Positions 5,272 through 38,770 of a stretch of DNA of 64,000 nucleotides are shown in pieces. Under the pieces are notes generated by a model, which was not told the DNA's origin, did no database searches, and saw only the letters and a program-made list of their open reading frames with translations. Within the stretch, counting starts at the first letter, position 1; each line of letters opens with the position of its first letter. The DNA comes from Candidatus Ryanbacteria bacterium RIFCSPLOWO2_12_FULL_44_26 (GTDB lineage Bacteria; Patescibacteriota; Minisyncoccia; Ryanbacterales; HO2-45-13), in contig MHOA01000001.1 in NCBI GenBank assembly GCA_001821765.1, positions 174,078-238,077 on the forward strand, read 5' to 3'. Both the position numbers and the translations under genes were made by a program.

Positions 5272-5376
5272 TTGATTGCCACCCATGATACCTTAAAGCT
5301 TGTGATTTTTAAAGAGTTTGGCAAAATAAATTCACAAGAAGAACTTTGTAAGAATTGATAAAAAGTTTCCCAAACC

Positions 5377-19964: not shown

Positions 19965-20150
19965 TGCGGAAACGATGATCCCGGCCACTTTTTTGTAAAA
20001 AAACATGAACATTACAACAACAGGAAAAATAACAATAGCGGCGCGGGGAGCTTTTTCCATTGAGGAATGCGCTATTCGCGCACGCGCCTCGCGAGGTGTT
20101 GCGCGGCAAAAAAGCAGCGGAGTGCTCACTGTTGTTTTTAAACATTACTC

Positions 20151-21218
20151 TTGGACTTTCATTTTTTAAAGAACAGCGGCATGCCTATTAAAAAAACAAC
20201 CGAAAAAGTGGATATCAACAAGCGCCGTATCATCAACGGGGAGGACGCGGATGTTATACAACTGTACCCGATGAAACACGTTTTTGCGTGGGACGCGTAT
20301 AATGCCGCGAACGCAAATCATTGGCTCCCAACGGAAATCGGAATGCAAAAAGACGTTGAGCAATGGAAAGCAAAGGACGTCCTAAGCGACGACGAAAGAC
20401 ATGCATTAAAAACCGTTCTGGGGTTTTTCACTACCGCAGATTCCATTGCGGCCAACAACGTTGTGATGGCATTCTACCGCCATATTACTTCCCCAGAGTG
20501 CCGACTGTATCTTCTGCGCCAAGCGTACGAGGAAGCTATACATACACACTCCTACCAATATATTGTCGAAAGTTTAAGACTTGATGAAAGTGAAATTTTT
20601 AACATGTACCGCGAAGTGGACAGCATTTATAATAAAGACGCGTTTGTTCTTTCCTTTAACGAGGGAATTTTTGATCCTCTTTTCAAAACGGGGACGTTTG
20701 AAAACGACCAAAAATTTTTAGAAAACATCATAGTATTCTCGCTGATCATGGAAGGGATTTTCTTTTATAGCTCCTTTGCTGTGATGTTTGGTTTCCAGCG
20801 CCAAAATAAAATGGTTGGCGCCGCAGAACAAATACAATATATTATGCGAGATGAATCAATGCATCTGAATTTCGGCATTGATTTGATCAATACGATAAAA
20901 CAAGAACAACCGGAGCTTTGGACAAAAACATTTCAAGAGCGCGCAATTGAACTGGTAAAAAAAGCTGCGCAGCTTGAATATCGGTTTGCTCAAACAGCCT
21001 TCCCAACAGGTATCTTCGGCATGAATGCCGAAAGCTTTAGACAATATATTGAACACATCGCCGACAGGCGCCTTACAAGAATAGGTCTTCCGCCACAATT
21101 TAACAGCAACAACCCTTTTCCGTGGATGTCGGAAGCAATCGATTTAAGCAAAGAAAAGAATTTCTTCGAAACGCGGGTTACTGAATACAAAACCGGCGGG
21201 GTGCTCGACTGGAACTAA
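20151..21218 (+). CDS. nrdB: ribonucleotide reductase beta subunit (ferritin-like di-iron)
   Basis: 355 aa with iron ligand motifs 'EEAIHTHSY' and 'EGIFFYSSFA'. An alternative start is ATG 20181. Confidence 0.9.
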   Translation: MDFHFLKNSGMPIKKTTEKVDINKRRIINGEDADVIQLYPMKHVFAWDAYNAANANHWLPTEIGMQKDVEQWKAKDVLSDDERHALKTVLGFFTTADSIAANNVVMAFYRHITSPECRLYLLRQAYEEAIHTHSYQYIVESLRLDESEIFNMYREVDSIYNKDAFVLSFNEGIFDPLFKTGTFENDQKFLENIIVFSLIMEGIFFYSSFAVMFGFQRQNKMVGAAEQIQYIMRDESMHLNFGIDLINTIKQEQPELWTKTFQERAIELVKKAAQLEYRFAQTAFPTGIFGMNAESFRQYIEHIADRRLTRIGLPPQFNSNNPFPWMSEAIDLSKEKNFFETRVTEYKTGGVLDWN

Positions 21219-21520: not shown

Positions 21521-21973
21521 ATGATGACAAATCATTCACCTACAACAATACTTGAGTATAACTATATTGACGAAGGAATATATATTGACACAAACCAGTG
21601 CTGTAAAGCACATATGGACGAAATGCTGTTAAAAAAAGGAATAACAGCTGATATCTCACTGGAAACAGTGAGACTTGACCAGCCGTTCGGTGTAACCTTT
21701 TATGTCTGGATTCCTGTTGAGAATCACACTGCACCAACGCATGATCAGCTTGATTTTGGGGTATCAGTGCTTGAAAAGCTTGTCCAAATGAAAAGAAAAG
21801 TATACGTGCATTGCCAAAATGGTCATGGCAGGGCTCCAACACTGGTAGCGGCGTATTTTACCACAAAAGGCATGACGCCTGACAAGGCCGAAGCATTCAT
21901 AAAATCAAAACGTCCCTCCATCCATTTAGAAAATGTCCAACGAAAAGCCCTTAAGGAATTTGCTAAAAGCTGA
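21521..21973 (+). CDS. dual-specificity/protein-tyrosine phosphatase-like protein (CX5R)
   Basis: 150 aa with the P-loop 'VHCQNGHGRAPT', a CX5R signature. Confidence 0.65.
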   Translation: MMTNHSPTTILEYNYIDEGIYIDTNQCCKAHMDEMLLKKGITADISLETVRLDQPFGVTFYVWIPVENHTAPTHDQLDFGVSVLEKLVQMKRKVYVHCQNGHGRAPTLVAAYFTTKGMTPDKAEAFIKSKRPSIHLENVQRKALKEFAKS

Positions 21974-21976
21974 CGT

Positions 21977-22738
21977 ATGGAGTTTGCTATTGCCGCATTC
22001 ATTGCCGGACTGTTCACATTTCTTGCCCCTTGTACCCTTCCGCTGGTACCGGGATACCTGGGATTTATCAGCGGAACGTCCGTTGAAGACCTTAAAAACC
22101 CTCTCAAAGCGAAACGTGCGAGGTGGAATATTCTCATCAATGGCCTGTTTTTTATCACGGGCTTTAGCGTTGTATTTATCATATTCGGCACACTTGCAGG
22201 CTTTTTTGGCGCTGCACTTGTAAGTTACAGACTTTGGCTTACGCGAATAGGAGGTATTTTTGTTATTATCTTCGGGCTTTTTATGTTGAATGTTATAAAA
22301 ATACCCTTCCTTGCCAAGGAAAGGCATGTAAGAGTGCCTTCCATTTTTAAACGCGGAAAGCCGCACAATTCTTTCATATTAGGCTCCACGTTTGGATTCG
22401 GATGGACACCGTGTGTGGGCCCGGTTCTCGGCTCCATCCTTGCTCTTGCCGCATCATCTGCTACTGTAGCGAAAGGAGCTTTTCTACTCTCCGTATTTTC
22501 ATTGGGGCTGGCGGTTCCGTTTCTTATCATTGCCGTCGGATACGGTTCTGCCGCGCAAAGGATTGAAAATATAACAAGATATCTTAAACCCATATCCGTT
22601 GTTGGAGGAATTTTTCTTATTTTAATCGGCTTACTGCTTCTCACAGACCGGTTTGTGCTTCTTATCTCATACGGTTTTGGAGTTCTGCGGTTCTTGGGTT
22701 TAGGTATGCTGGAAGAAACGCTTTTTCAGTTCCTCTAA
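21977..22738 (+). CDS. ccdA: cytochrome c-type biogenesis/thiol-disulfide transporter CcdA (DsbD-family)
   Basis: 253 aa, 6-8 TM helices, and the conserved Cys in 'FLAPCTLPLVPGYL' plus 'GWTPCVGPVLG'. Confidence 0.75.
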   Translation: MEFAIAAFIAGLFTFLAPCTLPLVPGYLGFISGTSVEDLKNPLKAKRARWNILINGLFFITGFSVVFIIFGTLAGFFGAALVSYRLWLTRIGGIFVIIFGLFMLNVIKIPFLAKERHVRVPSIFKRGKPHNSFILGSTFGFGWTPCVGPVLGSILALAASSATVAKGAFLLSVFSLGLAVPFLIIAVGYGSAAQRIENITRYLKPISVVGGIFLILIGLLLLTDRFVLLISYGFGVLRFLGLGMLEETLFQFL

Positions 22739-23521: not shown

Positions 23522-24013
23522 TTACTGCATTGGCAAATCACCTGCTTTTGATTGCTTTGGTGGCAACCATCCGCCAATTGATGTTGGTATGCCGCGCAAA
23601 AGCAAAAGAGCAAGCGGCGCCCCCCAATTAGCCCATCTTTCCACAAATTCAAAAATTGAATCGCCGGCAATCGGACGCATAAGAGCAGTCCAAAAACCCC
23701 AGAAGGCCATCCAAAGAAGCGCAAGGCGGACAGGCTTCATCAGAATCAACACAGCCAAAAGGACGTCTATCAAACCAACCAGCCACAAAAACGTAGTCGC
23801 TGTTCCGACATCAGAAATGCCGAAAATAGAAAACCATTCCACCCACGCTTTTCTCCCCTGAAGCGCGAATACGCCGTGTCCGACGAACTCTCCGGCCACA
23901 GAGATACGCAAGACCCATTCTACTTTTCTTACATTATTCATTGTCAAAAACAAAAAATAAACTAATAATAAATAAAGCTTCGACCACACTTTATTATAAG
24001 TAACCCGGAACAT
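23522..24013 (-). CDS. DoxX-like small membrane protein (paralog A)
   Basis: 163 aa. The probable true start is the internal Met 25 ('MNNVRKVEWVLRISVAGEFVGHGVFALQG...'), which aligns with paralog B's N-terminus. Four hydrophobic segments. About 100 residues are near-identical to the 26004..26384 product. Confidence 0.55.
   Translation of the reverse strand: MFRVTYNKVWSKLYLLLVYFLFLTMNNVRKVEWVLRISVAGEFVGHGVFALQGRKAWVEWFSIFGISDVGTATTFLWLVGLIDVLLAVLILMKPVRLALLWMAFWGFWTALMRPIAGDSIFEFVERWANWGAPLALLLLRGIPTSIGGWLPPKQSKAGDLPMQ
23620..23925. repeat. direct repeat copy 1 (~305 bp, 2-3 mismatches to copy at ~26053..26360)
   Basis: The nucleotide runs 'gcaagcggcgccccccaattagcccatctttccacaaattc...acgcaagaccca' are identical apart from ggccatcc/ggtcatcc and cacgctttt/cacgttttt. 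Confidence 0.8.
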
Positions 24014-26003: not shown

Positions 26004-26384
26004 TCACCGTAACCAATCACGCCAATGCTTCGGCCATCCGATAAATAAAAGCAATGCAAGCGGCGCCCCCCAATTAGCCCATCTTTCCACAAATTCAAAA
26101 ATTGAATCGCCGGCAATCGGACGCATAAGAGCAGTCCAAAAACCCCAGAAGGTCATCCAAAGAAGCGCAAGGCGGACAGGCTTCATCAGAATCAACACAG
26201 CCAAAAGGACGTCTATCAAACCAACCAGCCACAAAAACGTAGTCGCTGTTCCGACATCAGAAATGCCGAAAATAGAAAACCATTCCACCCACGTTTTTCT
26301 CCCCTGAAGCGCGAATACGCCGTGTCCGACGAACTCTCCGGCCACAGAGATACGCAAGACCCACTCAATAAGTTTTGTGTTCAT
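26004..26384 (-). CDS. DoxX-like small membrane protein (paralog B)
   Basis: 126 aa, near-identical core to paralog A. Confidence 0.55.
   Translation of the reverse strand: MNTKLIEWVLRISVAGEFVGHGVFALQGRKTWVEWFSIFGISDVGTATTFLWLVGLIDVLLAVLILMKPVRLALLWMTFWGFWTALMRPIAGDSIFEFVERWANWGAPLALLLFIGWPKHWRDWLR
26053..26360. repeat. direct repeat copy 2
   Basis: See copy 1. Confidence 0.8.
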
Positions 26385-26404: not shown

Positions 26405-27532
26405 TTATTCGACCTTTTGAAAAATCTCAGGCCGTTCCAGCCCCCCTACAATAAGCTCGCCAACGGCGCCTTTATCAATAGCTCGCGAGAGACTATGGTC
26501 AACCAAAAGATATTTTCCGGGGACTTCAACCCTGAACTCCGTTATCATGGCACCGCCCGGCGGCACAATGGTAGTTTGCACATTTCGATGAGGCGGAGAA
26601 ATAATATCTCCTTCGGGATATAGTTTGTCGAGTATCCCGCCGATGACATGGAAATTCGAAGCAATATGCGACCCAACGCCAAAGAATATACGGATTGTTT
26701 CTCCGACATTTGCCTCGAGCGCATTTTCGCCCGTAAGCGCGCCAACCCGACCGTTGAAGGCAAAATACTCCGGCTGTTCCTGTTGCAGTTTTTCCAAACT
26801 GAATGCTTGATGGCCTTTCTCGCCAACCTTGCCTGCTGTATACCATTCGCCCTGCATGATATAGTATTCGCGGTCAACCTTCGCGAGCCCCTCTTTTGGC
26901 TCAACAAGAATCATTCCGTACATGCCATTTGCGACATGTGTGGGAATGTGAGGGCTTGCGCAATGGTACACATAAATGCCCGGACGCGTCGCATTGAACT
27001 GGAATGCGCGCGTTTCCCCGGATGCGACTTGTGTCAATACCGCTCCGCCGCCGGGGCCTTCAACTGCGTGCAGATCAACGGAGTGTTTGGCGTGGCCCGC
27101 CTCGGCATGCTCGTCCGATCCTTCGGCGTGGTCGCCGTTCGCATAGGCGGGGGGAGCGATTAGAGCATCAACAACAAACGAATGGGAGGATGCTGCGGTA
27201 TGATGATCTCCTTGGCTATGATTCAGGCGAATTTCTACAGTATCTCCTTCTTTCACTCGAATGAATGGCCCGGGTACGGTGCCGTTATAAGTCCAGTATT
27301 CATAAGTTACCCCGGGTGCAAGTTCGGCGATTACTTCTTTAGTTTCAAGTTCCACGACTACTTTTTTGTTTTCTCTCCTTACAATAGGAGACGGTAAATC
27401 ATCGGCGTGTTTGCTGATGTCGCTTACGCTCACCGGCTTTGCCGCCGGGGATATCTCACGCGTAGTTTTATACGCAATCCCAACTCCAATAATAAGAATG
27501 ATAATACCAACAAAAATCCAAACCTTTTTCAT
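26405..27532 (-). CDS. nirK: copper-containing nitrite reductase (NirK), membrane-anchored
   Basis: 375 aa with an N-terminal TM. It has the type-1/type-2 Cu ligand blocks 'HSVDLHAVEGPGGGAVLTQV' and 'GIYVYHCASPHIPTHVANGMYGMILVEP'; the canonical NirK blocks are 'HNIDFHAATGALGGG' and 'YHCAPEGMVPWHVTSGMNG'. It also carries a His-rich insertion. Confidence 0.85.
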   Translation of the reverse strand: MKKVWIFVGIIILIIGVGIAYKTTREISPAAKPVSVSDISKHADDLPSPIVRRENKKVVVELETKEVIAELAPGVTYEYWTYNGTVPGPFIRVKEGDTVEIRLNHSQGDHHTAASSHSFVVDALIAPPAYANGDHAEGSDEHAEAGHAKHSVDLHAVEGPGGGAVLTQVASGETRAFQFNATRPGIYVYHCASPHIPTHVANGMYGMILVEPKEGLAKVDREYYIMQGEWYTAGKVGEKGHQAFSLEKLQQEQPEYFAFNGRVGALTGENALEANVGETIRIFFGVGSHIASNFHVIGGILDKLYPEGDIISPPHRNVQTTIVPPGGAMITEFRVEVPGKYLLVDHSLSRAIDKGAVGELIVGGLERPEIFQKVE

Positions 27533-27551
27533 AGCGATTTATTCTTCCAAA

Positions 27552-27583
27552 GATCGTGGAGAATCCGGCAGGACTCCACGATT
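27552..27583 (-). promoter_or_regulatory. perfect 10-bp inverted repeat (gATCGTGGAG-N12-CTCCACGATc) 20-50 bp upstream of nirK ATG
   Basis: Read directly. It lies between the ArsR-like reading frame's end (27599) and the nirK start (27532). Geometry matches a 12-2-12-type winged-helix operator. Confidence 0.45.
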
Positions 27584-27598
27584 TTCGGATCGGCTATT

Positions 27599-27832
27599 TT
27601 ATAATATACATTGAGTCCGTTCCGCCGCACGGTGACCAACCGTGCCGTGACGGAGAACCGCAAGGTGCTGCGATACATTGGCTTTGGGGAGTTTAAGAGT
27701 CTTCACAAGTTCTTTCACTGCCAGCTCTTTTTACTTGAGTAAATTCAAAATCTCAAGCCGTTTGGGATTAGCGAGTAGTTTATAGATGGTGGCGTTACGC
27801 TCGTACGTTATTTTAGGAAATGATGATTTCAT
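27599..27832 (-). pseudogene. ArsR/SmtB-family HTH regulator interrupted by an in-frame TAA
   Basis: The minus-strand frame reads 'MKSSFPKITYERNATIYKLLANPKRLEILNLLK*KELAVKELVKTLKLPKANVSQHLAVLRHGTVGHRAAERTQCIL*'. The ArsR signatures 'LA(D/N)PxRLxIL.LL' and 'SQxxVSxHLxxLRxxGxV' are both present, on either side of the stop at 27733..27731. Track ORF 27731..28018 is the upstream half with a spurious N-terminal extension. Confidence 0.5.
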
Positions 27833-27935
27833 GGTTCGACGCCGCTCACCATGAATCCTGAGCTTGTCGAATGGATTCATGGTTCGACGCCGCTCACCAT
27901 GAATCCTGAGCTTGTCGAATGGATTCATGGTTTCG
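27828..27935. repeat. 48-bp tandem repeat x2.2, each unit containing the hairpin ttcatggt-N12-accatgaa and an ATG on the minus strand
   Basis: The unit ttcatggttcgacgccgctcaccatgaatcctgagcttgtcgaatgga is repeated at 27828, 27876 and partially at 27924. The most downstream unit supplies the ArsR-like gene's ATG. Confidence 0.8.
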
Positions 27936-28026
27936 AAACCACATGGTACGATTAAATCATACCACATCCAAGATTCTCCGCAAAATAGGTTTTGACTTTT
28001 TTGAAAAGACACCACCAAATTAAATA

Positions 28027-28072
28027 TGTGGACCGGATGAGGTTTGAACTCACAACCTCCTGCATGTTCCGA
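28027..28072 (-). other. tRNA-like 3' fragment (T-arm GTGAG-TTCAAAC-CTCAT + acceptor 3' strand CCGGTCC-A) without a 5' half
   Basis: Minus strand GGAGGTTGTGAGTTCAAACCTCATCCGGTCCACA. It shares the terminal GGTCCAC with the adjacent tRNA-Ala, and no complementary 5' acceptor strand is present. Confidence 0.25.
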
Positions 28073-28167
28073 TGTGCAAAGGTGGACCTAGGGAGAATCG
28101 AACTCCCACACCCCGCGTGCAAGGCGGGCGCACTACCATTATGCTATAGGCCCACCTTTGCACATCG
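28069..28167. repeat. 16-bp inverted repeat (cgatgtgcaaaggtgg / ccacctttgcacatcg) exactly bracketing tRNA-Ala
   Basis: Read directly. It extends the acceptor helix to a ~23-bp continuous stem. Confidence 0.7.
28081..28153 (-). tRNA. tRNA-Ala (anticodon TGC)
   Basis: Minus strand GGGCCTATAGCATAATGGTAGTGCGCCCGCCTTGCACGCGGGGTGTGGGAGTTCGATTCTCCCTAGGTCCACC. Acceptor GGGCCTA/TAGGTCC, anticodon stem CCCGC/GCGGG with loop CTTGCAC, and T-arm GGGAG-TTCGATT-CTCCC. Confidence 0.85.
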
Positions 28168-28192
28168 AGAATCCTCTATTTCTAAACAAATT

Positions 28193-28438
28193 TTAGAACT
28201 GTTTTATTAAATTTTCCAGATATACACGCTTTTTCAAAGATTTTAAATATCGCTCTCTTTTAACCACCTCGCTTCTCGTTTCATACGCTTCTTGATATAC
28301 GAGTGACCAAGGTCTCTTGTTTTTCGTGGATCGCACCATGCTCTTATTGTGTGCTACCAGCCTTAGGTCAATGTTCTGTGTGAAACCAATGTAATAAGCA
28401 CCGTTCTTGCGAGATGGAATAATGTACACATAAAACAT
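28193..28438 (-). CDS. GIY-YIG nuclease family small protein (UPF0213/YhbQ-like)
   Basis: Track ORF 28193..28510; the likely start is Met 'MFYVYIIPSRKNGAYYIGFTQNIDLRLVAHN...'. The GIY-YIG motifs 'YVYII' ... 'YIGFT' and a conserved Arg/Glu/Tyr region are present. Confidence 0.65.
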   Translation of the reverse strand: MFYVYIIPSRKNGAYYIGFTQNIDLRLVAHNKSMVRSTKNKRPWSLVYQEAYETRSEVVKRERYLKSLKKRVYLENLIKQF

Positions 28439-28539
28439 TTCAAAATTTATAGAAATCGGGACAAAGCGGGTGCTCTGGCCAATTGAGCCGACCCCTAAAA
28501 CAAAGAACATGATACTACAAAATCGCAGAAAAATCCATG

Positions 28540-29499
28540 TTACGTTACTGCAAGGCGTATCAAATGATCCAAAAGCTGCTGGAATTCCAATCCTGCGGCT
28601 TTTGCGGCTTTCGGATAAAGCGACTCACTTGTAAAACCGGGAGAGGAATTTACCTCCAACACATACAGTTTTGTACCGTCCAATATCATATCAACCCGGG
28701 AGTAATGCTGTAAGTGAAGGGCTTTGTGCGCTTTTACGGCTGTTTCGCGGATATGACGCAGCATATCTCCATAAAAATCCGCCGGGCAGATTTCTTTTGT
28801 TGAACCATCATATTTCGTCTGATAATCAAAGAACCGGTTTTCAGGCGGGATGATCTCAACCGGAGGAAGCGCAAAATATTTTTCACCTCCAAAATTCTCC
28901 AGCACGCCGCATGTCAGTTCTCTTCCCTTAACATATTTTTGGAGCATTGCGTGATCATCATACTGAAATGCGCGCTTAAAAGCGGACAGTAAACCCTCAA
29001 ACGTATGGACCATAGAAACCCCAACCGACGATCCTCTTCTTAACGGTTTTATCACCCACGGGGGAGCCGAAAAATCAACTGCTTTTTTAACAACTTCTGA
29101 TTCATTGATATTGTCTTTTTTAACGACAAAGCTTCTTGGAAGATGTAAACCCGCTTTTTTAAGTACCTGCCCGGAACGATCTTTATGCATTGCAAGGGCT
29201 GATCCAAAAACACCACTCCCCACATACGGAATCCTTATAGAGTCAAGAATGCCCTGTACTTTCCCGTCTTCCCCATATTCACCGTGCATTGCATTAAACA
29301 CCACATCCGCGCCTCTAAGCGCTTCGGCTGGAGTCAGCCATTCTTGCTTCTCCCCCGCCAGCCATTCGCCGGTATGGGTGACATAAACAGGATGAACGTG
29401 ATAGCGCCCATGAAGCGCTTTTATAACGTTTCTTCCGCTCATCAAGGAAATGTCATGCTCGCTGGAAGGTCCCCCCATTAAAACCCCGACGGTTTTCAT
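28540..29499 (-). CDS. ddl: D-alanine--D-alanine ligase
   Basis: Track ORF 28540..29631; the likely start is ATG 29499 ('MKTVGVLMGGPSSEHDISLMSG...'). ATP-grasp motifs ('EVNSSPG'). Confidence 0.88.
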   Translation of the reverse strand: MKTVGVLMGGPSSEHDISLMSGRNVIKALHGRYHVHPVYVTHTGEWLAGEKQEWLTPAEALRGADVVFNAMHGEYGEDGKVQGILDSIRIPYVGSGVFGSALAMHKDRSGQVLKKAGLHLPRSFVVKKDNINESEVVKKAVDFSAPPWVIKPLRRGSSVGVSMVHTFEGLLSAFKRAFQYDDHAMLQKYVKGRELTCGVLENFGGEKYFALPPVEIIPPENRFFDYQTKYDGSTKEICPADFYGDMLRHIRETAVKAHKALHLQHYSRVDMILDGTKLYVLEVNSSPGFTSESLYPKAAKAAGLEFQQLLDHLIRLAVT

Positions 29500-29586
29500 G
29501 CTTACAGTATAAGCCTTACAAACAAACAAAAAAAGACGACGCCTGTGAGTTTTGTTGGCCTTCCTGCGACATGATATAATAAAAAC

Positions 29587-29847
29587 GTGCAGGAAATTAC
29601 ACTTACAGAACTGTCTTCGCCCGGGTGCCAAATCTGCAAAGCCTTTGAAGGATTTTGGAGCTCCGTTGAAAAAGACTGGCCCAATGTCAGATACAAAAAC
29701 GTAAGCGTCATTACTCCAGAGGGACAGGAATTAGTCCAAAAATACATGATTTTCGCTTCACCCGGCATTATTATAAACGAAGAGCTTTTCTCAACCGGCG
29801 GGTTTGACCGCAAGAAATTTATCACGAAACTAAAAGAACTGTCGTAG
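29587..29847 (+). CDS. thioredoxin/glutaredoxin-like small protein (CxxC)
   Basis: 86 aa with active-site-like 'SPGCQICK' and a Trx-fold-sized body. Confidence 0.6.
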   Translation: MQEITLTELSSPGCQICKAFEGFWSSVEKDWPNVRYKNVSVITPEGQELVQKYMIFASPGIIINEELFSTGGFDRKKFITKLKELS

Positions 29848-29848
29848 C

Positions 29849-30274
29849 ATGGGTTTTTTAAAAAAAGTCGGTCCCGAATATATCCTGCGTTACTCTTTGG
29901 GAATAACATATCTTTACTCGGGCTTTGATCTTTTTAGACATCCGACTGCTTGGTATTGGGCCCTGCCTATATGGGTAAAACAACTCATAGCGAGTTTGGT
30001 TGATATTAATTTATATCTAAAACTGCAGGGCATCGCTGAAATTATATTGGCTGTTTTGCTGCTTTCATGGTTTTTGAAACGAGTACTCATTAAATGGATA
30101 GCGCTGATTTCGGCACTGGAACTGGCCGCTATTTTACTGCTCGCGTTTTTGCCGTTTAGCCAAGCCAACTTTTTAATTACTTTTCGCGACATCGGACTTC
30201 TGGGAGCGGCGCTTTCTCTTTTTGTTATTTTATCCAAAGAAACCAAACCATCAAATGGATCAGACATCAACTAA
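29849..30274 (+). CDS. DoxX-family membrane protein
   Basis: 141 aa and 4 TM segments. 'YSLGITYLYSGFDLF' resembles the DoxX N-terminus. Confidence 0.5.
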   Translation: MGFLKKVGPEYILRYSLGITYLYSGFDLFRHPTAWYWALPIWVKQLIASLVDINLYLKLQGIAEIILAVLLLSWFLKRVLIKWIALISALELAAILLLAFLPFSQANFLITFRDIGLLGAALSLFVILSKETKPSNGSDIN

Positions 30275-31325
30275 AACCAAACTGGTTTTTTCGTCTTTAG
30301 TCGCGGGACTGCTTGCTTTTATCATTTTCGGCCTGCTTTGGGCGTTTGTCTTTGGATCCGAAAAACCAGAAGGGTTCGCATGGTATCTTTTTAGCTACGC
30401 CATGGGGCTTACTATGATTGTGCTTCCTTGCACGTTTCCCCTCGCGTTCGTCATAGTTCCTCTTTCTATGGGAAAAGGCGTGGCAAAAGGCCTTGGAATC
30501 GCGCTAGCTTTTGGAATTGGCGTGGCAATAATGTTGAGCATTTACGGTATTGTAGCCGCCTTGGTGGGGCAAGCGGCAATCGGCGCTCTTAACACGCCTT
30601 TGGAAACCGTTAAAAATTGGACATATTTTCTCGCGGGTGTTGCCGCATACCTTTTCGCGCTCGGAGAGCTGGGGATCATCCGCGTACGTTTGCCTTCATA
30701 CAGTGGCGCCGCTCCGGCTTTCATCCAAAAACAGCGCGATTATATCAAAGCGCTTTTGCTGGGGCTTTTTTTAGGAAATATCGGCGTTGGCTGCCCCCAT
30801 CCGGCAACGCCTCTTATTCTGGTGGAGATTGCGCGCGCGGGAGATGTATTTTACGGTTGGTCGCTTTTCTTCGTTCACGCGATCGGCAGAGTGCTGCCGC
30901 TGTTTTTGCTTGCGTTTCTTGGTATCTTAGGAGTTAACGCGCTGTCGTGGCTGGTGGCGCGAAAAGACAAACTGGAGCGGGCAACCGGCTGGGCGATGGT
31001 ATTTGTCGCTGGATTTATTCTGACACTCGGCCTATTTACGCATGATTGGTGGGTAAACTCCGGACAGCACATACTTTTGGAATCGGTAACGCAGGAAGCG
31101 CGGTTTACCGGCATCCTCGCGGAGCGGCTTGAAGTCACAGCGCCTCACACCCACGGCCTGGAGGAAGGATCCGGACTTTTTGGCCTTCCGCTTTGGATGG
31201 GCAATTGGGCTTTGGTCTTGCTCTGGATAACCCCCCTTTGGTGGTATTATTCAAAAAAGCGGAAGGAAGCATCCTCCGAAACCGACGCCTCCGCTGCCAT
31301 AGCAAACGCTTCCAAAACACCATGA
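30255..31325 (+). CDS. CcdA/DsbD-like thiol-disulfide membrane protein with C-terminal extension
   Basis: Track ORF 30222..31325; the likely start is ATG 30255 ('MDQTSTK...'). It has a Cys in 'VLPCTFPLAF' and a second in 'GVGCPHPATP', and about 8 TM helices. Confidence 0.5.
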   Translation: MDQTSTKTKLVFSSLVAGLLAFIIFGLLWAFVFGSEKPEGFAWYLFSYAMGLTMIVLPCTFPLAFVIVPLSMGKGVAKGLGIALAFGIGVAIMLSIYGIVAALVGQAAIGALNTPLETVKNWTYFLAGVAAYLFALGELGIIRVRLPSYSGAAPAFIQKQRDYIKALLLGLFLGNIGVGCPHPATPLILVEIARAGDVFYGWSLFFVHAIGRVLPLFLLAFLGILGVNALSWLVARKDKLERATGWAMVFVAGFILTLGLFTHDWWVNSGQHILLESVTQEARFTGILAERLEVTAPHTHGLEEGSGLFGLPLWMGNWALVLLWITPLWWYYSKKRKEASSETDASAAIANASKTP

Positions 31326-32422
31326 CTCCGGAAGAGAAAAAACTAAAAAAAGAAGCATTAAGGTGGCACTTCTGGTTTGCTGTTTCGTTTTCGCTTTTTC
31401 TAATCGTAACTTTCGCGCTTTACCTGCCTCTCCGGTTTTTACATCAAGTTGGAGTGAACGAAGAAGTTACGACGGCGCACGTAGATGAAGAAGGAGCGAA
31501 CCATCATGGAAACGCGCAATATCATGAAGAAAACGAAGTCAAAGAAGGGCTTGCAGTAAATCTTAATGCTACTCCCCCGCCCTTCACCGTTGGCAATCCG
31601 ATCAGACTCGATTTCCGCGTAAGTCAAAAGCCGGCCGACACACCTGTGTCAGCCGAGATATTGGAAATAGCACATGAAAAACCGATGCATGTTATCGGGG
31701 TGCGAAGCGATATGGAAGAATTCAGACATATCCACCCGGTACCGACTGAAGAAGCCGGAGTGTTTTCCATAAAGCACAAGTTTGACAAACCCGGAACGTA
31801 TAAATTCTGGTCCGAAATTAAAAAAGACGGCATAAACCACAGTTTCGGCCATCCCGAAATTTCCGTGGAAGGATCCGGACCGGCGTTTGAAAAAGAGGTT
31901 TCTTTAGGAAAAAATATAATAGTTGATGAATACCAAGTGGCGTTGCGGCTGGATGATATTATTAAGGCCGGTCAAGAAACCGAACTCTTTTTCGACGTCC
32001 ATACTCTTGATAGCCACGAAATTGAATATGAAAATTATCTTGACGCAACCATGCATCTTACGATAATTAAAGACGACTGGAAACAATTCATCCATACACA
32101 CCCGGAAGAAAAAGATCACCACGCAAGCAATGTCTTCATCCAAGAAGCATTTGCCAATGGAGGCGGACACAATACAAGCGTTGGAGGGCACGGCGTGGAA
32201 TTTCATGTTACTTTCCCTGAAACGGGTCTTTATAAAGTGTTTGCTCAATTCCGCCCCAGTGGAATTGGCCTTCCGGAAGAAGAAGCGCTTACCGCCGGTC
32301 TTTGGATAAAAGTTTCAGACCGCCCGGCGGTTTCTTCCCGGTGGATTTTGCTTTTTGCCTCGGTAGCCGCAATAGCTGTTTTAAGCTGGCTTGTCAGTAA
32401 ATATCTGAACGTAAAAGAGTAA
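31322..32422 (+). CDS. membrane-anchored protein with two tandem His-containing beta-rich domains (putative periplasmic metal/copper-binding)
   Basis: Track ORF 31193..32422; the likely start is ATG 31322 (ATGA overlap with the upstream stop). Internal repeat 'L.FxVxxxxxxxPxxxxxxxIxHEKPMHVIGVRSDMEEFRHIHP' versus 'LFFDVHTLDSHEIEYENYLDATMHLTIIKDDWKQFIHTHP'. N- and C-terminal TM segments. Confidence 0.45.
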   Translation: MTPEEKKLKKEALRWHFWFAVSFSLFLIVTFALYLPLRFLHQVGVNEEVTTAHVDEEGANHHGNAQYHEENEVKEGLAVNLNATPPPFTVGNPIRLDFRVSQKPADTPVSAEILEIAHEKPMHVIGVRSDMEEFRHIHPVPTEEAGVFSIKHKFDKPGTYKFWSEIKKDGINHSFGHPEISVEGSGPAFEKEVSLGKNIIVDEYQVALRLDDIIKAGQETELFFDVHTLDSHEIEYENYLDATMHLTIIKDDWKQFIHTHPEEKDHHASNVFIQEAFANGGGHNTSVGGHGVEFHVTFPETGLYKVFAQFRPSGIGLPEEEALTAGLWIKVSDRPAVSSRWILLFASVAAIAVLSWLVSKYLNVKE

Positions 32423-32436
32423 ATACGCCGTGCGCA

Positions 32437-32874
32437 ATGAATAAATATTTTATAATTTTAATAATGGGAGCGTTGGTAATATTGGGAGGCATATTTTATA
32501 GATCCTTTTTACTCCCCGAATCGGCAGTGCCAGTCATCAGCGGGAAAACACACGAAATCACCATTACAGCGAAGAAAGACCAATGGAGGTTTGAACCCGA
32601 AATTATTGAAATAAATCGGGGAGACAAAGTTATTGCCACCGTAATAAACGAAGACGAATATGACCACGGCATTGCCATTGATGCTTTCGGAATCTCCCAG
32701 AGAATGCCGGCCAAAAGCACAATTCAATTTGAATTTGTGGCTACACAGGAAGGAGATTTTCCTTTCTACTGTTCGGTGCCTTGCGGAGAAGGCAAAGTTG
32801 ATGGCGTAAAAAGAACGCATTTTGATATGATCAGCAAACTACACGTAAGAAGCATTAATTCATCAACAGAATAA
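32437..32874 (+). CDS. cupredoxin-like (type-1 copper) membrane-anchored protein
   Basis: 145 aa with an N-terminal TM. Candidate ligands are 'DHG' His and '[11 protein letters not shown]...H..M' (Cys-His-Met). Confidence 0.6.
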
Positions 32875-32879
32875 ACAAT

Positions 32880-35438
32880 ATGGCTGCAACTAAATTAGTA
32901 CTTAAGGTAAAAGGAATGCATTGTGCTTCCTGCTCCACGCTTATTGATAAACTTATAGGAAAACAGGAGGGCGTCATTTCTATTAAAACCAATTACGGCT
33001 CTGAAAAAACGGCCGTAACATTTGATGAATCCAAAATTTCGCTAAAGAAAATAGACGAATTAATCAACAAACTCGGCTATGATCTTATCCGTCCCGATGA
33101 AGCCGGCATAAACATTGTTGAGGAAGAAAAGAAAGAAAAGCGCAAAATTGAGGAGTCTAAAAGAAGAGTAATAGCCGCTTTCATATTGGCGTTTCCAATC
33201 ATTGCCTACTACATGCTGATTCATATGTTTAACGTAACGCATGTACATGAGTTCTTTGATTTTTTAAATATAAGCCGCCCGGCGCTTTCAAGCGCAGGTT
33301 TTATCGCTTATGGCTCTTACCTAACTAATTATCTTTTCTGGCTGGTAGCACAGCCGTTAAAACTTCTGGTCGGCATTTTTGTCAATATAGCCAATCCCCC
33401 GTTCCGCATTGACCTTAACTATTTTTACTGGATTTTATCCACCCCCATACAGTTTGTCATCGGCTGGCAATTTTACCGCAATTCGTTTACCGCTATCCGC
33501 GTAGGATCTGCCAATATGGATGTTTTGGTAGCCCTTGGAACTTCGGCAGCTTACTTTTATAGCACTATTGGTTTTCTTTTCTTTAATATTGACCACCCTT
33601 TTTGGGAATCTTCCGCAGCGCTCCTCTTTTTCATTCTGCTTGGGCGTTACTTTGAAGCGGTTTCCAAAGGAAGAGCTTCCGCTGCTATTAAAGAACTGCT
33701 TAAGCTTGAAGCTAAAGAAGCCCATGTGATTAGAAACGACGAAGAAGTTACAGTTCCCATTGACCAAATTCAAAAAGGAGAAATCGTACTGGTTCGTCCG
33801 GGCGAAAAAATACCCGTAGACGGCAAAATTATTGAGGGGAAAACACACATTGATGAAAAAGTAGTAACTGGAGAATCGTTCCCGGTGGGAAAAACGGTGG
33901 GAGACGAAGTAATCGGCGCCACCATAAACCAGGAGGGCTTAATCAAATTTCAAGCCACCAAAGTCGGCAAAGACACTCTGCTCTATCAGATAATCAATAT
34001 GGTAGAGGAAGCGCAGGCATCACGAGCTCCTATCCAAAATCTGGTGGATAAAATAAGTGAATATTTCGTGCCTGCGGTAATAGTGCTTTCCGTATTAGTG
34101 TTCGCCGGCTGGTATTTCGGAGCTGCTCTTCCTTTCAGGGCTGGACTTTTGCGAATGATAGCAGTCTTGGTGATTTCATGTCCTTGTGCTATGGGACTTG
34201 CCACTCCAACTGCCCTCATCGTCGGCATAGGGCGCGCTACCAACTTCGGCATAATTCTCAAAGGGGGAGAAGCGCTGGAGAAAGCCTATAAAATAAATTC
34301 TATCGTTTTTGATAAAACCGGCACTCTTACCATAGGCAAACCGGTAGTAACCGACTTTATGATGGTGTCAGACAAATTTAAAGAAAAAGAGGCGCTTCTC
34401 CTGGCCGCTTCTTTGGAAAAAGGTTCGGAACATCCTTTGGCAAAAGCCGTCGTGGAAAAAGGAAAATCAATAGCCACCGGCAAAAATGCATTACAAACGC
34501 CGACTGCATTTGAGGCAGTTTCCGGTTTGGGAATTAAAGGAAAAGTAAACGGCAAATTTATAGCCATAGGAAATCAGGCGTTTATGGATAAGCTCGGAGT
34601 GCCAACAGCGCAGCATGAAATGCTGGTGGAAAAACTGCAAAATGAAGCTAAAACCGTCGTTTTTATGTCCGTAGGAAAAGAGGCGGCGGCTGTTATCGCC
34701 ATGGCGGATACCTTAAAACCCTACGCCAAAGAAACCATTACGGCGCTAAAAGCCATGAGGAAAGAAATAATAATGATTACCGGAGACAACCAAAAAACAG
34801 CCGAAGCCATCGCGCGACAAGTCGGAATAGATCGCGTTATGGCGAAAGTTTTACCGCAGGAAAAAGCGAAAACGGTAAAAAAACTCCAAGAGGAAGGAAA
34901 AAGCGTGGCCATGGTTGGAGACGGCATAAATGATTCACCGGCGCTTGCGCAAGCCGATATTGGCATCGCAATCGGATCAGGCACCGACGTGGCTATAGAA
35001 ACCGGGGAGATAATACTGGTAAAAGATGAACTGAGAGACGTAGTAACAGCCATCCAGCTTTCAGGAAAAACCATAAAAAAAGTGTGGCAAAATCTGTTCT
35101 GGGCTTTTATTTACAATATATTGGCTATACCGATTGCCGGAGGAATTCATCTTCTTATCACACAAGCTTCTTTCGGCATACCTGCGCCTTGGGTATTAGA
35201 CGTAACCAAAAGTCTGGGGTCGGCTTTCGGACAGATTTTCTTTAATTTTTCGCAAGCGACTTTGCGTCCGGAAATTGCCGGCTTTGCCATGGCCTTTAGC
35301 TCCGTTTCAGTAGTAACCAACTCGCTTTTGCTTAGGCGCTACGTTCCGCCCATGGAAAAAATAATTGTCAAAAAGAAACCTTCTGATGAAACTCATTACA
35401 AGTTAAAAAACAACAAAGACAATTATGGAAAAGATTGA
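32880..35438 (+). CDS. copA: copper-translocating P1B-type ATPase
   Basis: 852 aa. N-terminal HMA 'GMHCASCS', TM 'CPC', 'DKTGTLT', 'HP', and '[10 protein letters not shown]'. Confidence 0.92.
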
Positions 35439-35631
35439 ATTAAAAATTGAAGGAATGCATTGCGGATCCTGCGCTACAGGCATACAAATGCTGGTTTCCC
35501 AAATGGACGGGGTGAAATCCATTTTTGTAGATTATAATAGCAAAAAGGGTGCCGTGGAATTCGACTCAACAAAAGTAACCAAAGAACAAATCATAAAAGA
35601 AATAGCCGTTCTGGGATATCAAGCCTCATAA
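35425..35631 (+). CDS. copZ: copper chaperone CopZ (HMA domain)
   Basis: 68 aa with 'GMHCGSCA'. Its start overlaps the end of copA. Confidence 0.8.
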
Positions 35632-35663
35632 ACGTTACATATTCCTTGCGCTTTTCTAAAATG

Positions 35664-35737
35664 TGGGCACGGATGGACTCGAACCATCGACCTCTTCATT
35701 ATCAGTGAAGTGCTCTAACCAACTGAGCTACGTGCCC
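35664..35737 (-). tRNA. tRNA-Ile (anticodon GAT)
   Basis: Minus strand GGGCACGTAGCTCAGTTGGTTAGAGCACTTCACTGATAATGAAGAGGTCGATGGTTCGAGTCCATCCGTGCCCA. Anticodon stem CTTCA/TGAAG with loop CTGATAA. Confidence 0.88.
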
Positions 35738-35775
35738 GCCAACAGTGACCATTCCAACCGAGCTACACCCCCGGC
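35738..35775 (-). other. tRNA-like 5' fragment (GCCGGGGGTGTAGCTCGGTTGGAATGGTCAC...) abutting tRNA-Ile
   Basis: It resembles an acceptor 5' strand plus D-arm but lacks a foldable D stem and any 3' half. Confidence 0.2.
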
Positions 35776-36030
35776 ATCATATAATTTAGCATAGAAATCG
35801 AGACGAGTAAATAAAAAACAACGAGAGAAAAGTTCAACCAAACGTAAAGGTAAAAGCGCGCAGTCCCGGTTTTTCAATAAGAATTTCCAGAATAAATATT
35901 GATTCTACTGGCTGTTTAAAATACCTGGAGATTTTTAAAGCTGAAGATACTGAATAGCGAATGTCTGATAATATGTAAAGTATACTTTATATTACGTTAT
36001 GGATTTCGTCGGTTAAGGATTTGTTTAAAA

Positions 36031-36064
36031 CCATAAAAGCCCCTTTAGGGGCTTTTATGGTTGA
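36031..36064 (-). terminator. rho-independent terminator hairpin (aaccataaaagcccc-ttta-ggggcttttatggtt)
   Basis: Perfect 15-bp stem with a GC core and T-rich tail on the minus strand, immediately 3' of the small zinc-ribbon gene. Confidence 0.5.
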
Positions 36065-36075
36065 AATGTGATTAC

Positions 36076-36231
36076 TTATGCTTTGCCTAAAATCTTAAAC
36101 ATCTTCGTTCCGCATACACTGCACGTTCCTTTTACAGCTTTCATCCCGTTTTTCATAACCGTTTCCTGCGCATCTTTCATTTCCCGCTGCTCCTTGCATT
36201 TCATGCAACGTCCCTTCACTGGTTGATCCAT
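36076..36231 (-). CDS. small zinc-ribbon protein (51 aa; two CxxC pairs)
   Basis: Not in the track (<60 aa). The ORF ATG..TAA reads 'MDQPVKGRCMKCKEQREMKDAQETVMKNGMKAVKGTCSVCGTKMFKILGKA' and is followed by a terminator hairpin. Confidence 0.5.
   Translation of the reverse strand: MDQPVKGRCMKCKEQREMKDAQETVMKNGMKAVKGTCSVCGTKMFKILGKA

Positions 36232-36548: not shown

Positions 36549-38770
<2,222 letters not shown>

Follow-up and report, generated by a model that had tools for sequence, protein, structure and literature searches.

A copper nitrite reductase gene (nirK), the remains of an ArsR/SmtB-family regulator gene whose stop codon overlaps the nirK start, and a string of copper-handling and thiol-redox genes make up the locus described here, which lies within a 64-kb stretch of DNA that was analysed as a whole (the window; Table 1). 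The nirK reading frame is intact. A tRNA-Ala gene lies immediately upstream of the arsR-nirK unit, as it does in a related locus, L009, and a gene encoding a small membrane protein follows nirK on the same strand. The copper and thiol-redox genes (29587..35631, forward strand) are 2 kb distant from nirK, with the tRNA-Ala gene, a GIY-YIG gene and ddl in between. An earlier sequence-only reading of this DNA had placed nirK beside an extensive copper and thiol-redox cluster; the genes of that cluster are real and their link to nirK recurs in relatives, but in the window they are neither contiguous with nirK nor on its strand.

Table 1. Features of the nirK locus and the copper/thiol cluster, in window coordinates (strand "." where a feature has none).
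Feature	Coordinates	Strand	Basis and remarks
Small membrane protein, 126 aa, 20 nt downstream of nirK	26004..26384	-	DoxX match sub-threshold: E = 8.9e-4, 20.3 bits vs 23.6
nirK coding sequence, 375 aa	26405..27532	-	Two-domain AniA-like (class II / clade II) copper nitrite reductase
His-/acid-rich insertion, NirK residues H105 to H150	27083..27220	-	Directly before first type-1 Cu ligand
N-terminal hydrophobic helix, NirK residues 2-23	27464..27529	-	Hydropathy and AF2
ArsR/SmtB-family regulator pseudogene	27529..27832	-	Three-frame translation; stop codon overlaps nirK start (ATGA)
Inverted repeat	27546..27589	.	Perfect 9-bp core 27553-27561 / 27574-27582, 12-nt spacer; arms extend to 16 nt, 88% complementarity
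One-base insertion shifting arsR frame (+1)	27640..27649	-	CACGGCACGG vs CAC-GCGCGG in relatives
In-frame TAA, codon 34 of arsR pseudogene	27731..27733	-	Ile or Val codon in relatives
48-nt tandem duplication, 5' end of arsR	27823..27931	.	Each unit with 11-bp perfect palindrome ACCATGAATCC N14 GGATTCATGGT
Palindrome GTTTCGAAAC	27930..27939	.	Just upstream of ancestral arsR start; kept in L007 and L009
Extended -10-like element TGGTATGAT	27956..27964	-	Read from sequence; candidate promoter for arsR(pseudo)-nirK transcript
tRNA-Ala(TGC)	28081..28153	-	Immediately upstream of arsR-nirK unit
Small thioredoxin, CxxC, no signal sequence	29587..29847	+	Thioredoxin_3, 27 bits vs 24.8
Membrane protein, 141 aa	29849..30274	+	No family match; same gene string as copper cluster
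CcdA/DsbD-type transmembrane thiol-disulfide transporter	30222..31325	+	DsbD_TM, 39.6 bits vs 27.1
His-rich YtkA-like protein, membrane helices at both ends	31322..32422	+	YtkA sub-threshold, 24.3 bits vs 25.9
Membrane-anchored cupredoxin	32437..32874	+	Cupredoxin_1, 34.4 bits vs 27
CopA, Cu(I)-exporting P1B-type ATPase	32880..35438	+	TIGR01511, 597 bits vs 397; N-terminal HMA, CPC motif
CopZ-type copper chaperone	35425..35631	+	HMA, 55.2 bits

The 375-aa product of nirK scores 321.7 bits against the whole-protein model TIGR02376 (NirK; curated equivalog cut-off 296.3, E = 5.4e-96), and contains two cupredoxin domains, matched in Pfam by Cu-oxidase_3 and Cu-oxidase_2. Its best match by sequence among solved structures is AniA of Neisseria gonorrhoeae (PDB 1kbv; E = 6e-96, ~46% identity), and the AniA-like group as a whole (AniA, HdNIR and RpNiR cores) aligns at E = 1e-88 to 6e-96 and 43-47% identity, as against E ~1e-39 and 26-28% identity for class I enzymes of the Achromobacter/Alcaligenes type (AxNiR, AcNiR). 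Judged by sequence and structure similarity, the protein is thus AniA-like and belongs to class II, or clade II. With the AF2 monomer model (pLDDT 86) as query, all of the best 50 matches listed by Foldseek are NirK, with target TM-scores of up to 0.96 to NirK cores, and the predicted fold is that of NirK. The type-1 copper ligands H150, C191, H199 and M204 align with those of AniA; among 120 homologues the first three never vary and M204 is conserved in at least 90%, while the type-2 ligands (H155, H190, H346), the catalytic Asp and His (D153, H295) and the Ile adjoining the catalytic His (I297) are invariant throughout. AniA (PDB 1kbv, 5ue6) accordingly shares with the window protein its two-cupredoxin fold and its type-1, type-2 and catalytic residues.

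As both Pfam matches are to generic multicopper oxidase domains only, the possibility that the protein is not a nitrite reductase but a laccase-like multicopper oxidase has to be considered. Such an identity is vanishingly improbable. Models for laccase, CueO, CopA-type oxidase and ascorbate oxidase return 20-45 bits against cut-offs of 445-615 (31.7 vs 559 for laccase, and 23.6 vs 525 for CueO), the middle Cu-oxidase domain (PF00394) was not found by the Pfam search of the protein, and the NirK model passes its own cut-off. The sequence-only reading, in assigning the frame to NirK, had allowed for a contrary outcome in which the protein would group with multicopper oxidases or laccases and lack the type-2 ligands; all three type-2 histidines are present, as are the other NirK-specific residues, and the laccase reading is refuted by model scores, domains, residues and structural matches alike. 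The assignment to NirK is confirmed by the TIGR02376 score, the match to AniA, and the retention of every type-1, type-2 and catalytic residue.

The nearest relatives of the protein are NirKs of Parcubacteria/Patescibacteria (55-87% identity), and an identical protein is filed in GenBank under Candidatus Ryanbacteria, the group whose MAG supplied the window, which bears out the CPR host proposed from the sequence alone. Taken together, the comparisons point to a genuine copper nitrite reductase of a CPR-specific lineage, for which nitrite-to-NO activity is predicted. The novelty of nitrite reduction in a minimal CPR organism was, however, overstated at first: a copper nitrite reductase in a CPR genome is already known. 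The GenBank entry already carries that name, the nirK passages of Danczak et al. (2017; PMC5581439) describe NirK in Parcubacteria/CPR as a CPR-specific clade, and those of a 2025 survey (PMC12931201) report it from more than 140 Patescibacteria MAGs; conserved ligands and the hypothesis of a cupredoxin donor appear in both. The clade described in these passages is the same lineage as that of the window protein.

Two further features, an N-terminal helix and a His-rich insertion, are common to the whole CPR NirK lineage. The former corresponds to a single strongly hydrophobic segment (residues 3-21; Kyte-Doolittle mean 2.38), over which AF2 models a helix at residues 2-23, and is most likely an uncleaved signal anchor. 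A hydrophobic N-terminal run occurs in 106 of the 120 homologues and a lipobox in eight (three of which have the hydrophobic run too), and in CopA-NirK fusions the anchor equivalent is an internal membrane helix. The membrane anchoring claimed for this protein therefore stands. AniA is also membrane-tethered, but as an outer-membrane lipoprotein, whereas in the window NirK the helix looks uncleaved and a lipobox cysteine is missing.

The insertion is likewise real. Alignment with AniA breaks at residues 107-147, where AniA has four residues and the window NirK has ~40, rich in histidine and acidic residues; across the 120 homologues the segment spans 24-72 residues, of which His makes up 16% and Asp+Glu 17%. 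Two additional histidines flank it, H105 (invariant among the homologues) and H147 (conserved in at least 90%), both of which are missing from AniA and from canonical clade II NirK in the alignment. Residues 109-139 have pLDDT values below 50 in the AF2 model, which suggests a disordered loop, and its position in the sequence would place this loop beside the type-1 copper. The NirKs of the methanotrophs Methylobacter and Methylomonas methanica, which are 60-62% identical to the window protein, have H105, H147 and an EHxxAGHxxH motif, but their insertion is shorter (~19 residues) and their hosts are respiring Gammaproteobacteria. In the complex of AxNiR with cytochrome c551, the loop before the first type-1 His has a donor-docking role. 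In the CPR enzyme the His-rich loop would most likely capture copper, or form an extra metal or docking site beside the type-1 centre.

Upstream of nirK, a perfect 10-bp inverted repeat at 27552..27583 had been read as an operator within the nirK promoter. The repeat is perfect over 9 bp, the tenth position of its arms being a G/T mismatch, and is found 14-57 nt ahead of the nirK start codon. Its location, its 16-nt arms at 88% complementarity, and its folding as a moderately stable RNA hairpin (-27.4 kcal/mol, z = -2.8) would be in keeping with an operator. The arms are nevertheless part of the 3' end of the ArsR-family coding sequence, where they encode Ile-Val-Glu and Leu-His-Asp of the C-terminus, and in L007 and L009, two related loci with an intact arsR, these amino acids are kept while synonymous changes, none of them compensated, disrupt the palindrome. 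Further, some seven 9-mer repeats of this kind are expected by chance in the 64-kb window, a simple promoter scan of 27533-27700 found no promoter-like hexamers or sigma-70-like site between the repeat and nirK, and the only candidate cognate regulator at the locus is a pseudogene. On the alignment of relatives, the chance count and the promoter scan we rejected the operator reading, which is very improbable; the flagged repeat is a chance palindrome in a dead regulator gene. Because arsR is no longer translated through it, the hairpin at 27546-27589 could affect nirK translation or mRNA stability, in a minor role.

The regulator gene itself is no longer intact. The window copy has, at codon 34, a stop codon in frame and, further along, a +1 frameshift, and does not contain the intact winged-helix reading frame of an ArsR/SmtB protein. 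Both lesions are identical in the window and in six other assemblies (seven in total), and, as these derive from different samples and assemblers, an assembly error was rejected as their origin. Intact orthologues lie directly upstream of nirK in L007 and L009, that of L007 scoring 81.8 bits against the NF033788 cut-off of 55. In the ancestor, arsR was translationally coupled to nirK; in this population it is dead.

The control region of the former regulator lies further upstream. The 48-nt unit duplicated at the 5' end of arsR varies in copy number, with one unit fewer in two of the six other assemblies; no further copies of this palindromic repeat were found elsewhere in the window, and on that ground its interpretation as a dispersed mobile element was rejected. 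The conserved palindrome GTTTCGAAAC, from its position and its retention in relatives, may be a better operator candidate than the repeat originally flagged. The -10-like element TGGTATGAT was not called by the simple promoter scan; a similar element, TGGTATACT, is found in L009. With arsR dead, transcription of nirK would probably start at the former arsR promoter, which would lie upstream of 27940, with no repressor to check it, and constitutive nirK expression is predicted for this population.

The fate of arsR might be taken to extend to nirK, which would then be an unused and decaying remnant of a horizontally acquired island. Consistent with this, the regulator is pseudogenised, the tandem duplication in the 5' region is variable, the gene downstream of nirK has been recently duplicated (a second, partial copy with 99% identity is found at 23610-23909), the arsR-nirK unit adjoins a tRNA gene, and G+C is slightly raised here (0.48, vs a typical 0.40-0.45 elsewhere in the window). 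Against these observations stand an intact nirK reading frame, whose identical product is found on 29 contigs (48 index blocks) from several samples, and the conservation of every functional NirK residue at 86% identity to the nearest species; moreover, loss of a repressor raises expression more often than it abolishes it. We therefore regard a decaying nirK as distinctly improbable, and take the gene to be functional in what follows.

Of the proteins encoded by the copper cluster, CopA passes its subfamily cut-off with both the HMA domain and the CPC motif in place. The small thioredoxin is probably cytoplasmic, as it has no signal sequence; its homologues in L010, L013 and L048 are encoded directly after nirK. 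The YtkA-like protein, for which comparison with solved structures found no solved relative, is a candidate extracytoplasmic Cu chaperone. The cupredoxin has a CuA-like pattern (H76, C112-x3-C116-G, H128-x2-M131), with eight extra residues before the second His, and its relatives carry the canonical CSVPCGxGHxx(M/Q); its best solved relatives, all weak, are nitrosocyanin (9.5e-7) and the CuA domains of cytochrome oxidase and NosZ (4e-5).

The association of nirK with such genes extends well beyond the window. Among 30 independent CPR loci, eight have CopA no more than 10 kb from nirK, and in a ninth, on a short contig, NirK is fused to CcdA; assuming that 2-5% are expected by chance, the binomial p for nine of 30 is 5e-9 to 1e-5, and eight of 30 would likewise be far above chance. 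About two-thirds of related nirK loci show no copper genes nearby, and many of those contigs are short. At least 21 protein clusters contain single-ORF fusions of CopA to NirK, and three loci (L010, L013, L015) contain single-ORF fusions of CcdA to NirK, while a thioredoxin gene directly follows nirK in L010, L013, L045 and L048, with VKOR next in L045. Judged by these relatives, the link between nirK and copper genes is not accidental. The fusions, together with the insertion, suggest a dedicated copper supply, or possibly an unusual supply of electrons. We found no paper describing either the CopA/CcdA fusions or the His-rich insertion in a literature largely outside subscription journals; the nirK passages of PMC5581439 and PMC12931201 make no mention of the insertion, the membrane anchor, ArsR coupling or these fusions, and the 50% coverage in both directions that was required in the 2025 screen (PMC12931201) would exclude fusions.

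We propose that the AniA-like NirK of this CPR bacterium is functional, and that it would be located at the outer side of the cell membrane, reducing nitrite to NO. CopZ and CopA, together with the YtkA-like protein, CcdA and thioredoxin, would export Cu(I) and reducing power for the maturation of extracytoplasmic copper centres; the His-rich loop would serve as outlined above. There is precedent for such a supply in AniA, which needs a dedicated Cu chaperone with a His/Met-rich tail of its own (PMC13006917). The CuA-like cupredoxin is most likely the immediate electron donor. In relatives this cupredoxin accompanies CopA and not nirK, so that its role may lie in copper handling instead. To this explanation as a whole, including the palindrome as coding sequence of a dead arsR and nirK as unrepressed, we assign a probability of roughly 0.72.

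The same associations may also be read as a wiring diagram, in which CPR NirK is connected not to a respiratory chain but to the copper-export and thiol-relay machinery itself, with nitrite as an electron sink for a fermenter. The His-rich loop next to the type-1 copper would then be the point of entry for electrons, supplied either by exported Cu(I) or, through CcdA, by cytoplasmic thioredoxin; under the Cu(I) variant, NirK would parallel the cuprous oxidase CueO under anaerobic conditions. The CueO of E. coli, a periplasmic enzyme partnered with CopA, offers an analogy only: it too is built of cupredoxin domains, works alongside CopA, and has a flexible metal-binding insert beside its type-1 copper, a Met-rich insert which the NirK loop resembles. 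It differs in having three domains and a trinuclear cluster, and in reducing O2, whereas the window NirK combines a two-domain architecture with a type-2 site and a His-rich insert, and falls far below the CueO cut-off (23.6 bits vs 525). The CopA and CcdA fusions would accord with such wiring; the CopA lineage concerned has, in Peregrinibacteria, either NirK or a three-domain multicopper oxidase as its fusion partner, and the thioredoxin and VKOR genes that follow nirK in some relatives would suit the thiol route. The ancestral regulator, moreover, was of the ArsR/SmtB metalloregulator type rather than a nitrite or NO sensor, and the loop adjoining the type-1 ligand is of a metal-binding type. 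However, fusion and adjacency are explained equally well if the maturing enzyme is supplied with copper and has its cysteines reduced, as the case of AniA illustrates; in other relatives the partners of nirK are DoxX-type proteins or a Pyr_redox_2 dehydrogenase, which fits a more conventional route from NADH to the membrane to NirK; and CopA-fused NirKs have fewer loop histidines, not more. Direct wiring of this kind is thus unlikely, and a maturation role for the copper and thiol genes is preferred. Were the wiring correct, single-ORF CopA-NirK and CcdA-NirK fusions would be its fossil record. What the CPR NirK literature leaves to be explained is the source of the electrons, and the retention of the enzyme by organisms that have no respiratory chain. 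The loop beside the electron-entry copper, the adjacency and fusion of CopA and CcdA, and the recurrent DoxX-type neighbours would be concrete candidates for its copper and electron supply.

The small membrane protein encoded directly downstream of nirK in the window bears on the last of these. Its Pfam match to DoxX is sub-threshold, and in pairwise comparison it resembles neither the clear DoxX protein beside nirK in L014 nor the 141-aa protein of the copper cluster; it was accordingly rejected as a DoxX homologue, and may be called DoxX-like at most. Its family adjoins nirK in L007, L022 and L041 too.

The nirK product, which the sequence-only reading had taken for a membrane-anchored copper nitrite reductase in a CPR-like genome, is a NirK of the AniA-like class, named for the gonococcal enzyme AniA (PDB 1kbv). 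It comprises two cupredoxin-type domains (Cu-oxidase_3 and Cu-oxidase_2 in Pfam), and scores 321.7 bits against the curated NCBIfam equivalog model for copper-containing nitrite reductases, TIGR02376 (cut-off 296.3). Grouping with multicopper oxidases or laccases lacking type-2 copper ligands would have told against this identity, but models for laccase, CueO, ascorbate oxidase and copper-resistance oxidase yield only 20-45 bits versus cut-offs of 445-615, and the type-2 histidines are intact. Among solved structures AniA is the top sequence match (E = 6e-96), followed by the enzyme cores of Hyphomicrobium, Pseudoalteromonas and Ralstonia (1e-88 to 1e-95), whereas class I enzymes (Achromobacter, Alcaligenes) match at only about 1e-39. 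In a Foldseek search of the PDB with an AlphaFold2 model (120 homologues as input; mean pLDDT 86), nitrite reductases account for 50 of the 50 best matches, with target TM-scores up to 0.96. NirK possesses the catalytic apparatus of a nitrite reductase: across alignments of 26, 34 and 120 sequences, the type-1 ligands H150, C191 and H199, the type-2 ligands H155, H190 and H346, catalytic D153 and H295, and neighbouring I297 are invariant, and the remaining type-1 ligand, M204, is at least 90% conserved.

The N-terminus is best read as a signal anchor, with the enzyme itself located outside the membrane, in keeping with the anchoring proposed earlier. Residues 3-21, with a Kyte-Doolittle mean of 2.38, form a strongly hydrophobic run that lies in a modelled helix over residues 2-23, and reading of the N-terminal sequence revealed no polar stretch after the hydrophobic core, lipobox cysteine or twin-arginine motif. 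A comparable hydrophobic run occurs in 106 of 120 homologues, and an AniA-like lipobox in 8, three of which also have the run. The segment may instead be cleaved; in the CopA-NirK fusions discussed below, its equivalent forms an additional membrane helix, located after the last helix of CopA and ahead of the NirK domain.

The reported His-rich insertion was likewise recovered, and is common to the whole lineage rather than specific to this gene, as judged from aligned homologues. Alignment with AniA, which has 4 residues at this site, is interrupted between residues 106 and 148. Counted from H105 to H150, the segment is 46 residues long here, and its length ranges over 24-72 among the 120 closest homologues; it comprises 16% His and 17% Asp+Glu, and the motifs HSFAxD, AYAxG and EHxxAGHxxH recur in it. 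Of the bracketing histidines H105 is invariant and H147 at least 90% conserved, and both are present in all CPR NirK sequences examined; Methylobacter and Methylomonas enzymes also have them, with a short insertion of about 19 residues, whereas the canonical AniA-like enzymes of Novispirillum and Bacteriovoracaceae have neither. Residues 109-139 are modelled with pLDDT below 50, indicating flexibility or disorder, and the insertion abuts H150, the first type-1 ligand, where the surface is presumably the electron-donor docking site, as in the AxNiR-cytochrome c551 complex. The median histidine count of the loop is 5 in CopA-fused NirKs versus 9 in stand-alone enzymes, which mildly favours a copper-capture role for the loop, the comparison being a weak one since the fusions form one clade. 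Separately, the methanotroph NirKs (six loci, L023, L025, L028, L029, L037 and L038; Methylobacter, Methylomonas methanica) show 60-62% identity with the CPR enzyme, which together with the common insertion hints at gene transfer between methanotrophs and CPR bacteria. Some NirKs of the lineage, CopA-fused ones included, carry a conserved, His/Cys-rich C-terminal extension of about 170-190 aa (proteins P0093 and P0097, L019:4050-5714, and the C-terminus of P0125), for which Pfam gave no match.

Control of nirK appears to differ from that first proposed, namely a perfect 10-bp inverted repeat acting as an operator in the nirK promoter. The perfect core spans 9 bp, the tenth pair being a G/T mismatch; the extended arms (16 nt) are 88% complementary, and about 7 such 9-mer matches are expected by chance in the window under its first-order Markov model. 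Three-frame translation of 27500-28100 places the repeat inside an ArsR/SmtB-type reading frame, its arms coding for Ile-Val-Glu and Leu-His-Asp of the C-terminus, and two relatives with intact arsR (L007, L009) retain these amino acids with the palindrome broken by uncompensated synonymous substitutions. Because of this coding position and the broken palindrome, and because no sigma-70-like promoter was found in the stretch from the repeat to nirK, the repeat is an incidental product of the coding sequence, not an operator. An RNA hairpin is predicted there (-27.4 kcal/mol, z = -2.8), the outer part of which overlaps a weak GGAAG upstream of the nirK start codon; that it dampens nirK translation, with ribosomes now halting at arsR codon 34, is speculation.

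The arsR frame ends in a TGA overlapping the nirK ATG (ATGA), and is disrupted by a stop codon and an insertion (Table). Both lesions are common to the window and all six other assemblies from which the nirK locus was recovered (GCA_001821715.1 and five further JGI and ENA assemblies), and are therefore not assembly errors. The gene is intact at the same position in L007, whose NirK is 86% identical and whose ArsR passes the ArsR/SmtB model, and in L009, a Doudnabacteria MAG; their ArsR products are 77 and 74% identical, respectively, to the repaired window sequence. Better candidates for operator and promoter, by sequence comparison, are a palindrome, GTTTCGAAAC (27930-27939), upstream of the ancestral arsR start codon and common to the window, L007 and L009, and an extended -10-like element, TGGTATGAT/TGGTATACT (27956-27964), common to the window and L009. 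Each unit of the intervening 48-nt duplication carries an 11-bp perfect palindrome, and unit number differs between assemblies of the same population (the window versus L001 and L006), two of the six others having one unit fewer. Most simply, the former arsR promoter would now drive nirK transcription, with repression lost.

Table. Positions of the features discussed (window coordinates, unless a locus with a related nirK, L, is named).
Feature	Position	Strand	Remarks
nirK ORF	26405..27532	(-)	uninterrupted, 375 codons
Perfect inverted repeat, 9 bp	27553-27561 and 27574-27582		ATCGTGGAG / CTCCACGAT; 12-nt spacer
One-base insertion in arsR	within 27640-27649		three-frame translation
TAA interrupting arsR frame	27731-27733		codon 34; three-frame translation
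48-nt tandem duplication	27823-27931		in window, between 27930-27939 palindrome and start codon
Copper/thiol cluster	29587 to 35631	(+)	seven genes, listed next
Small thioredoxin		(+)	CxxC; no signal sequence
Membrane protein		(+)	141 aa
CcdA/DsbD-type thiol transporter		(+)
His-rich protein		(+)	membrane helix at each end; YtkA-like domain sub-threshold
Cupredoxin		(+)	membrane-anchored
CopA		(+)	TIGR01511, 597 bits vs. cut-off 397; HMA domain; CPC motif
CopZ		(+)
16S rRNA gene	36543-38766	(-)	2224 nt vs. 1533-nt model
CopA-NirK fusions	L026:7631-10948, L031:7730-11203, L024:96-2261		ORFs 1105-1324 aa; proteins P0121-P0141
CcdA-NirK single ORFs	L010:8801-11086, L013:7114-9396, L015:4505-6811		about 760 residues; three Patescibacteria loci

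The copper and thiol-redox cluster said to lie beside nirK is real, and the two are neighbours, not one operon: they occupy opposite strands, separated by ddl, a GIY-YIG gene and tRNA-Ala. Its cupredoxin has a CuA-like ligand pattern, which reads CSVPCGxGHxx(M/Q) in relatives and is lengthened by eight residues ahead of the second His in the window protein; the solved structures that match it best are those of nitrosocyanin and of CuA domains from cytochrome oxidase and nitrous-oxide reductase. Thirty separate CPR loci with NirK of this lineage were compared: the window itself, 22 loci of GTDB species representatives and 7 obtained by contig look-up. In 8 of them CopA is situated no more than 10 kb from nirK, and a ninth, on a short contig, has a CcdA-NirK fusion. 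The binomial probability for 9/30 is 5e-9 to 1e-5 if chance is set at 2-5%, a figure that ignores kinship among these phylogenetically related loci, the gene arrangements of which differ; 8/30 is also far above chance. The association of nirK with copper export and thiol transport is thus non-random.

The association extends to gene fusion. Single ORFs in Peribacteria and Peregrinibacteria (L024, L026, L031) join a complete CopA (HMA domain and P-type ATPase) via the extra membrane helix to NirK; a database search from one fusion returned at least 21 protein clusters of full-length CopA-NirK, which the source records call only heavy-metal or Cu-exporting ATPases. The same CopA lineage is fused elsewhere to a three-domain multicopper oxidase (Cu-oxidase_3, Cu-oxidase, Cu-oxidase_2; P0167, P0177, P0195). 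Downstream of the CcdA-NirK ORF, both L010 and L013 have thioredoxin, cupredoxin, CopA and CopZ; the L015 contig stops at the fusion. Other neighbours include DoxX-type membrane proteins, clear or weak, beside nirK in seven loci (the window included), with two DoxX-type genes preceding ATP synthase genes in L041 (8001-10366); a thioredoxin and VKOR pair in L045 (8001-9993); and a Pyr_redox_2 flavoprotein/dehydrogenase 15 nt downstream in L042 (8001-10381). In L046 (8001-9665), where a DoxX gene follows, and L047 (8001-9230), nirK lies within the ribosomal protein operon between rplE (L5) and rpsH (S8), which implies co-expression with ribosomal proteins. Two LOOT RNA matches (78 and 88 bits; L016:4934-5052 and 6203-6326) lie a few kb upstream of nirK on a Terrybacteria contig.

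We infer that NirK makes NO from nitrite, facing outward, and the neighbourhood in relatives offers a testable lead on the supply of copper, and perhaps of electrons, to it. The conservative explanation for the copper link would be enzyme maturation. AniA cannot acquire copper alone, and needs the chaperone AccA, which has its own His/Met-rich tail (PMC13006917). A single-membrane cell, lacking an enclosed periplasm, would have even more reason to keep the exporter, a protein resembling a chaperone and a loop that captures copper close to the enzyme. CcdA and thioredoxin could keep the cysteines of apo-proteins reduced, especially the cysteine pair of the CuA-like cupredoxin. As to electrons, Cu(I) exported by CopA, or a thiol relay through CcdA, might itself be the source, a reading that the fusions bring to mind but which we consider unlikely; the cupredoxin as direct donor to NirK is the most plausible, and two publications already propose such a donor for CPR NirK (PMC5581439; PMC12931201). 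The cupredoxin might in turn be reduced by DoxX-type proteins, or by the NADH-dehydrogenase-like neighbour seen in relatives.

The novelty of NirK in a CPR genome was overstated, as it was published in 2017 and 2025, and GenBank correctly names an identical protein, encoded by a Rifle aquifer MAG assigned to Candidatus Ryanbacteria, "nitrite reductase, copper-containing". Danczak et al. [quoted passage not shown] (2020) listed nirK among sparsely distributed CPR traits. A 2025 survey (PMC12931201) reports nirK in more than 140 Patescibacteria MAGs of more than 50 lineages, with transcripts detected, under a criterion of 50% coverage of both query and subject, because of which the CopA-NirK and CcdA-NirK fusions would have been missed. 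The open-access literature searched yielded no description of the H105/H147 insertion, the ArsR coupling and decay, or either fusion, which may be described elsewhere.

Assignment of the host to the CPR holds, the identical protein being filed under Candidatus Ryanbacteria and the 16S rRNA gene containing a group I intron (match at 37425-37708); long, intron-bearing 16S rRNA genes are typical of CPR bacteria. Beyond the intron match, the gene contains about 400 further inserted bases. The 16S gene and tRNA-Ile(GAT) are split from tRNA-Ala(TGC) by about 7.5 kb containing the copper cluster, ddl and GIY-YIG genes (28081-38766), with no 23S gene within the 64-kb window; a classical rRNA operon spacer has seemingly been broken up by inserted genes, arsR-nirK coming next after tRNA-Ala. 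The latter is flanked by a 21-nt inverted repeat (28070-28090 / 28147-28167; 95% complementary), which would lengthen its acceptor stem by about 13 bp, and a 27-nt stretch just downstream (28028-28054) is 70% identical to its 3' end. Downstream of nirK, a small membrane-protein gene has been duplicated recently, as seen from a 300-nt direct repeat of 99% identity (23610-23909 and 26056-26355) with the second copy 2.4 kb away; between the copies lie an RNHCP zinc-ribbon gene and a 355-aa secreted or anchored protein without family match. Also less than 10 kb from nirK are both subunits, large and small, of an aerobic-type class I ribonucleotide reductase (17136-21218), and another DsbD_TM gene, paired with a gene that resembles dual-specificity phosphatases (21521-22738), annotated from the called genes of loci L001 and L002. 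Finally, translations of window positions 1-5272, beside tRNA-Gln, include putative DNA methyltransferase-like (SPPY motif), small HTH and serine-recombinase-like genes, which could be a mobile restriction-modification island.
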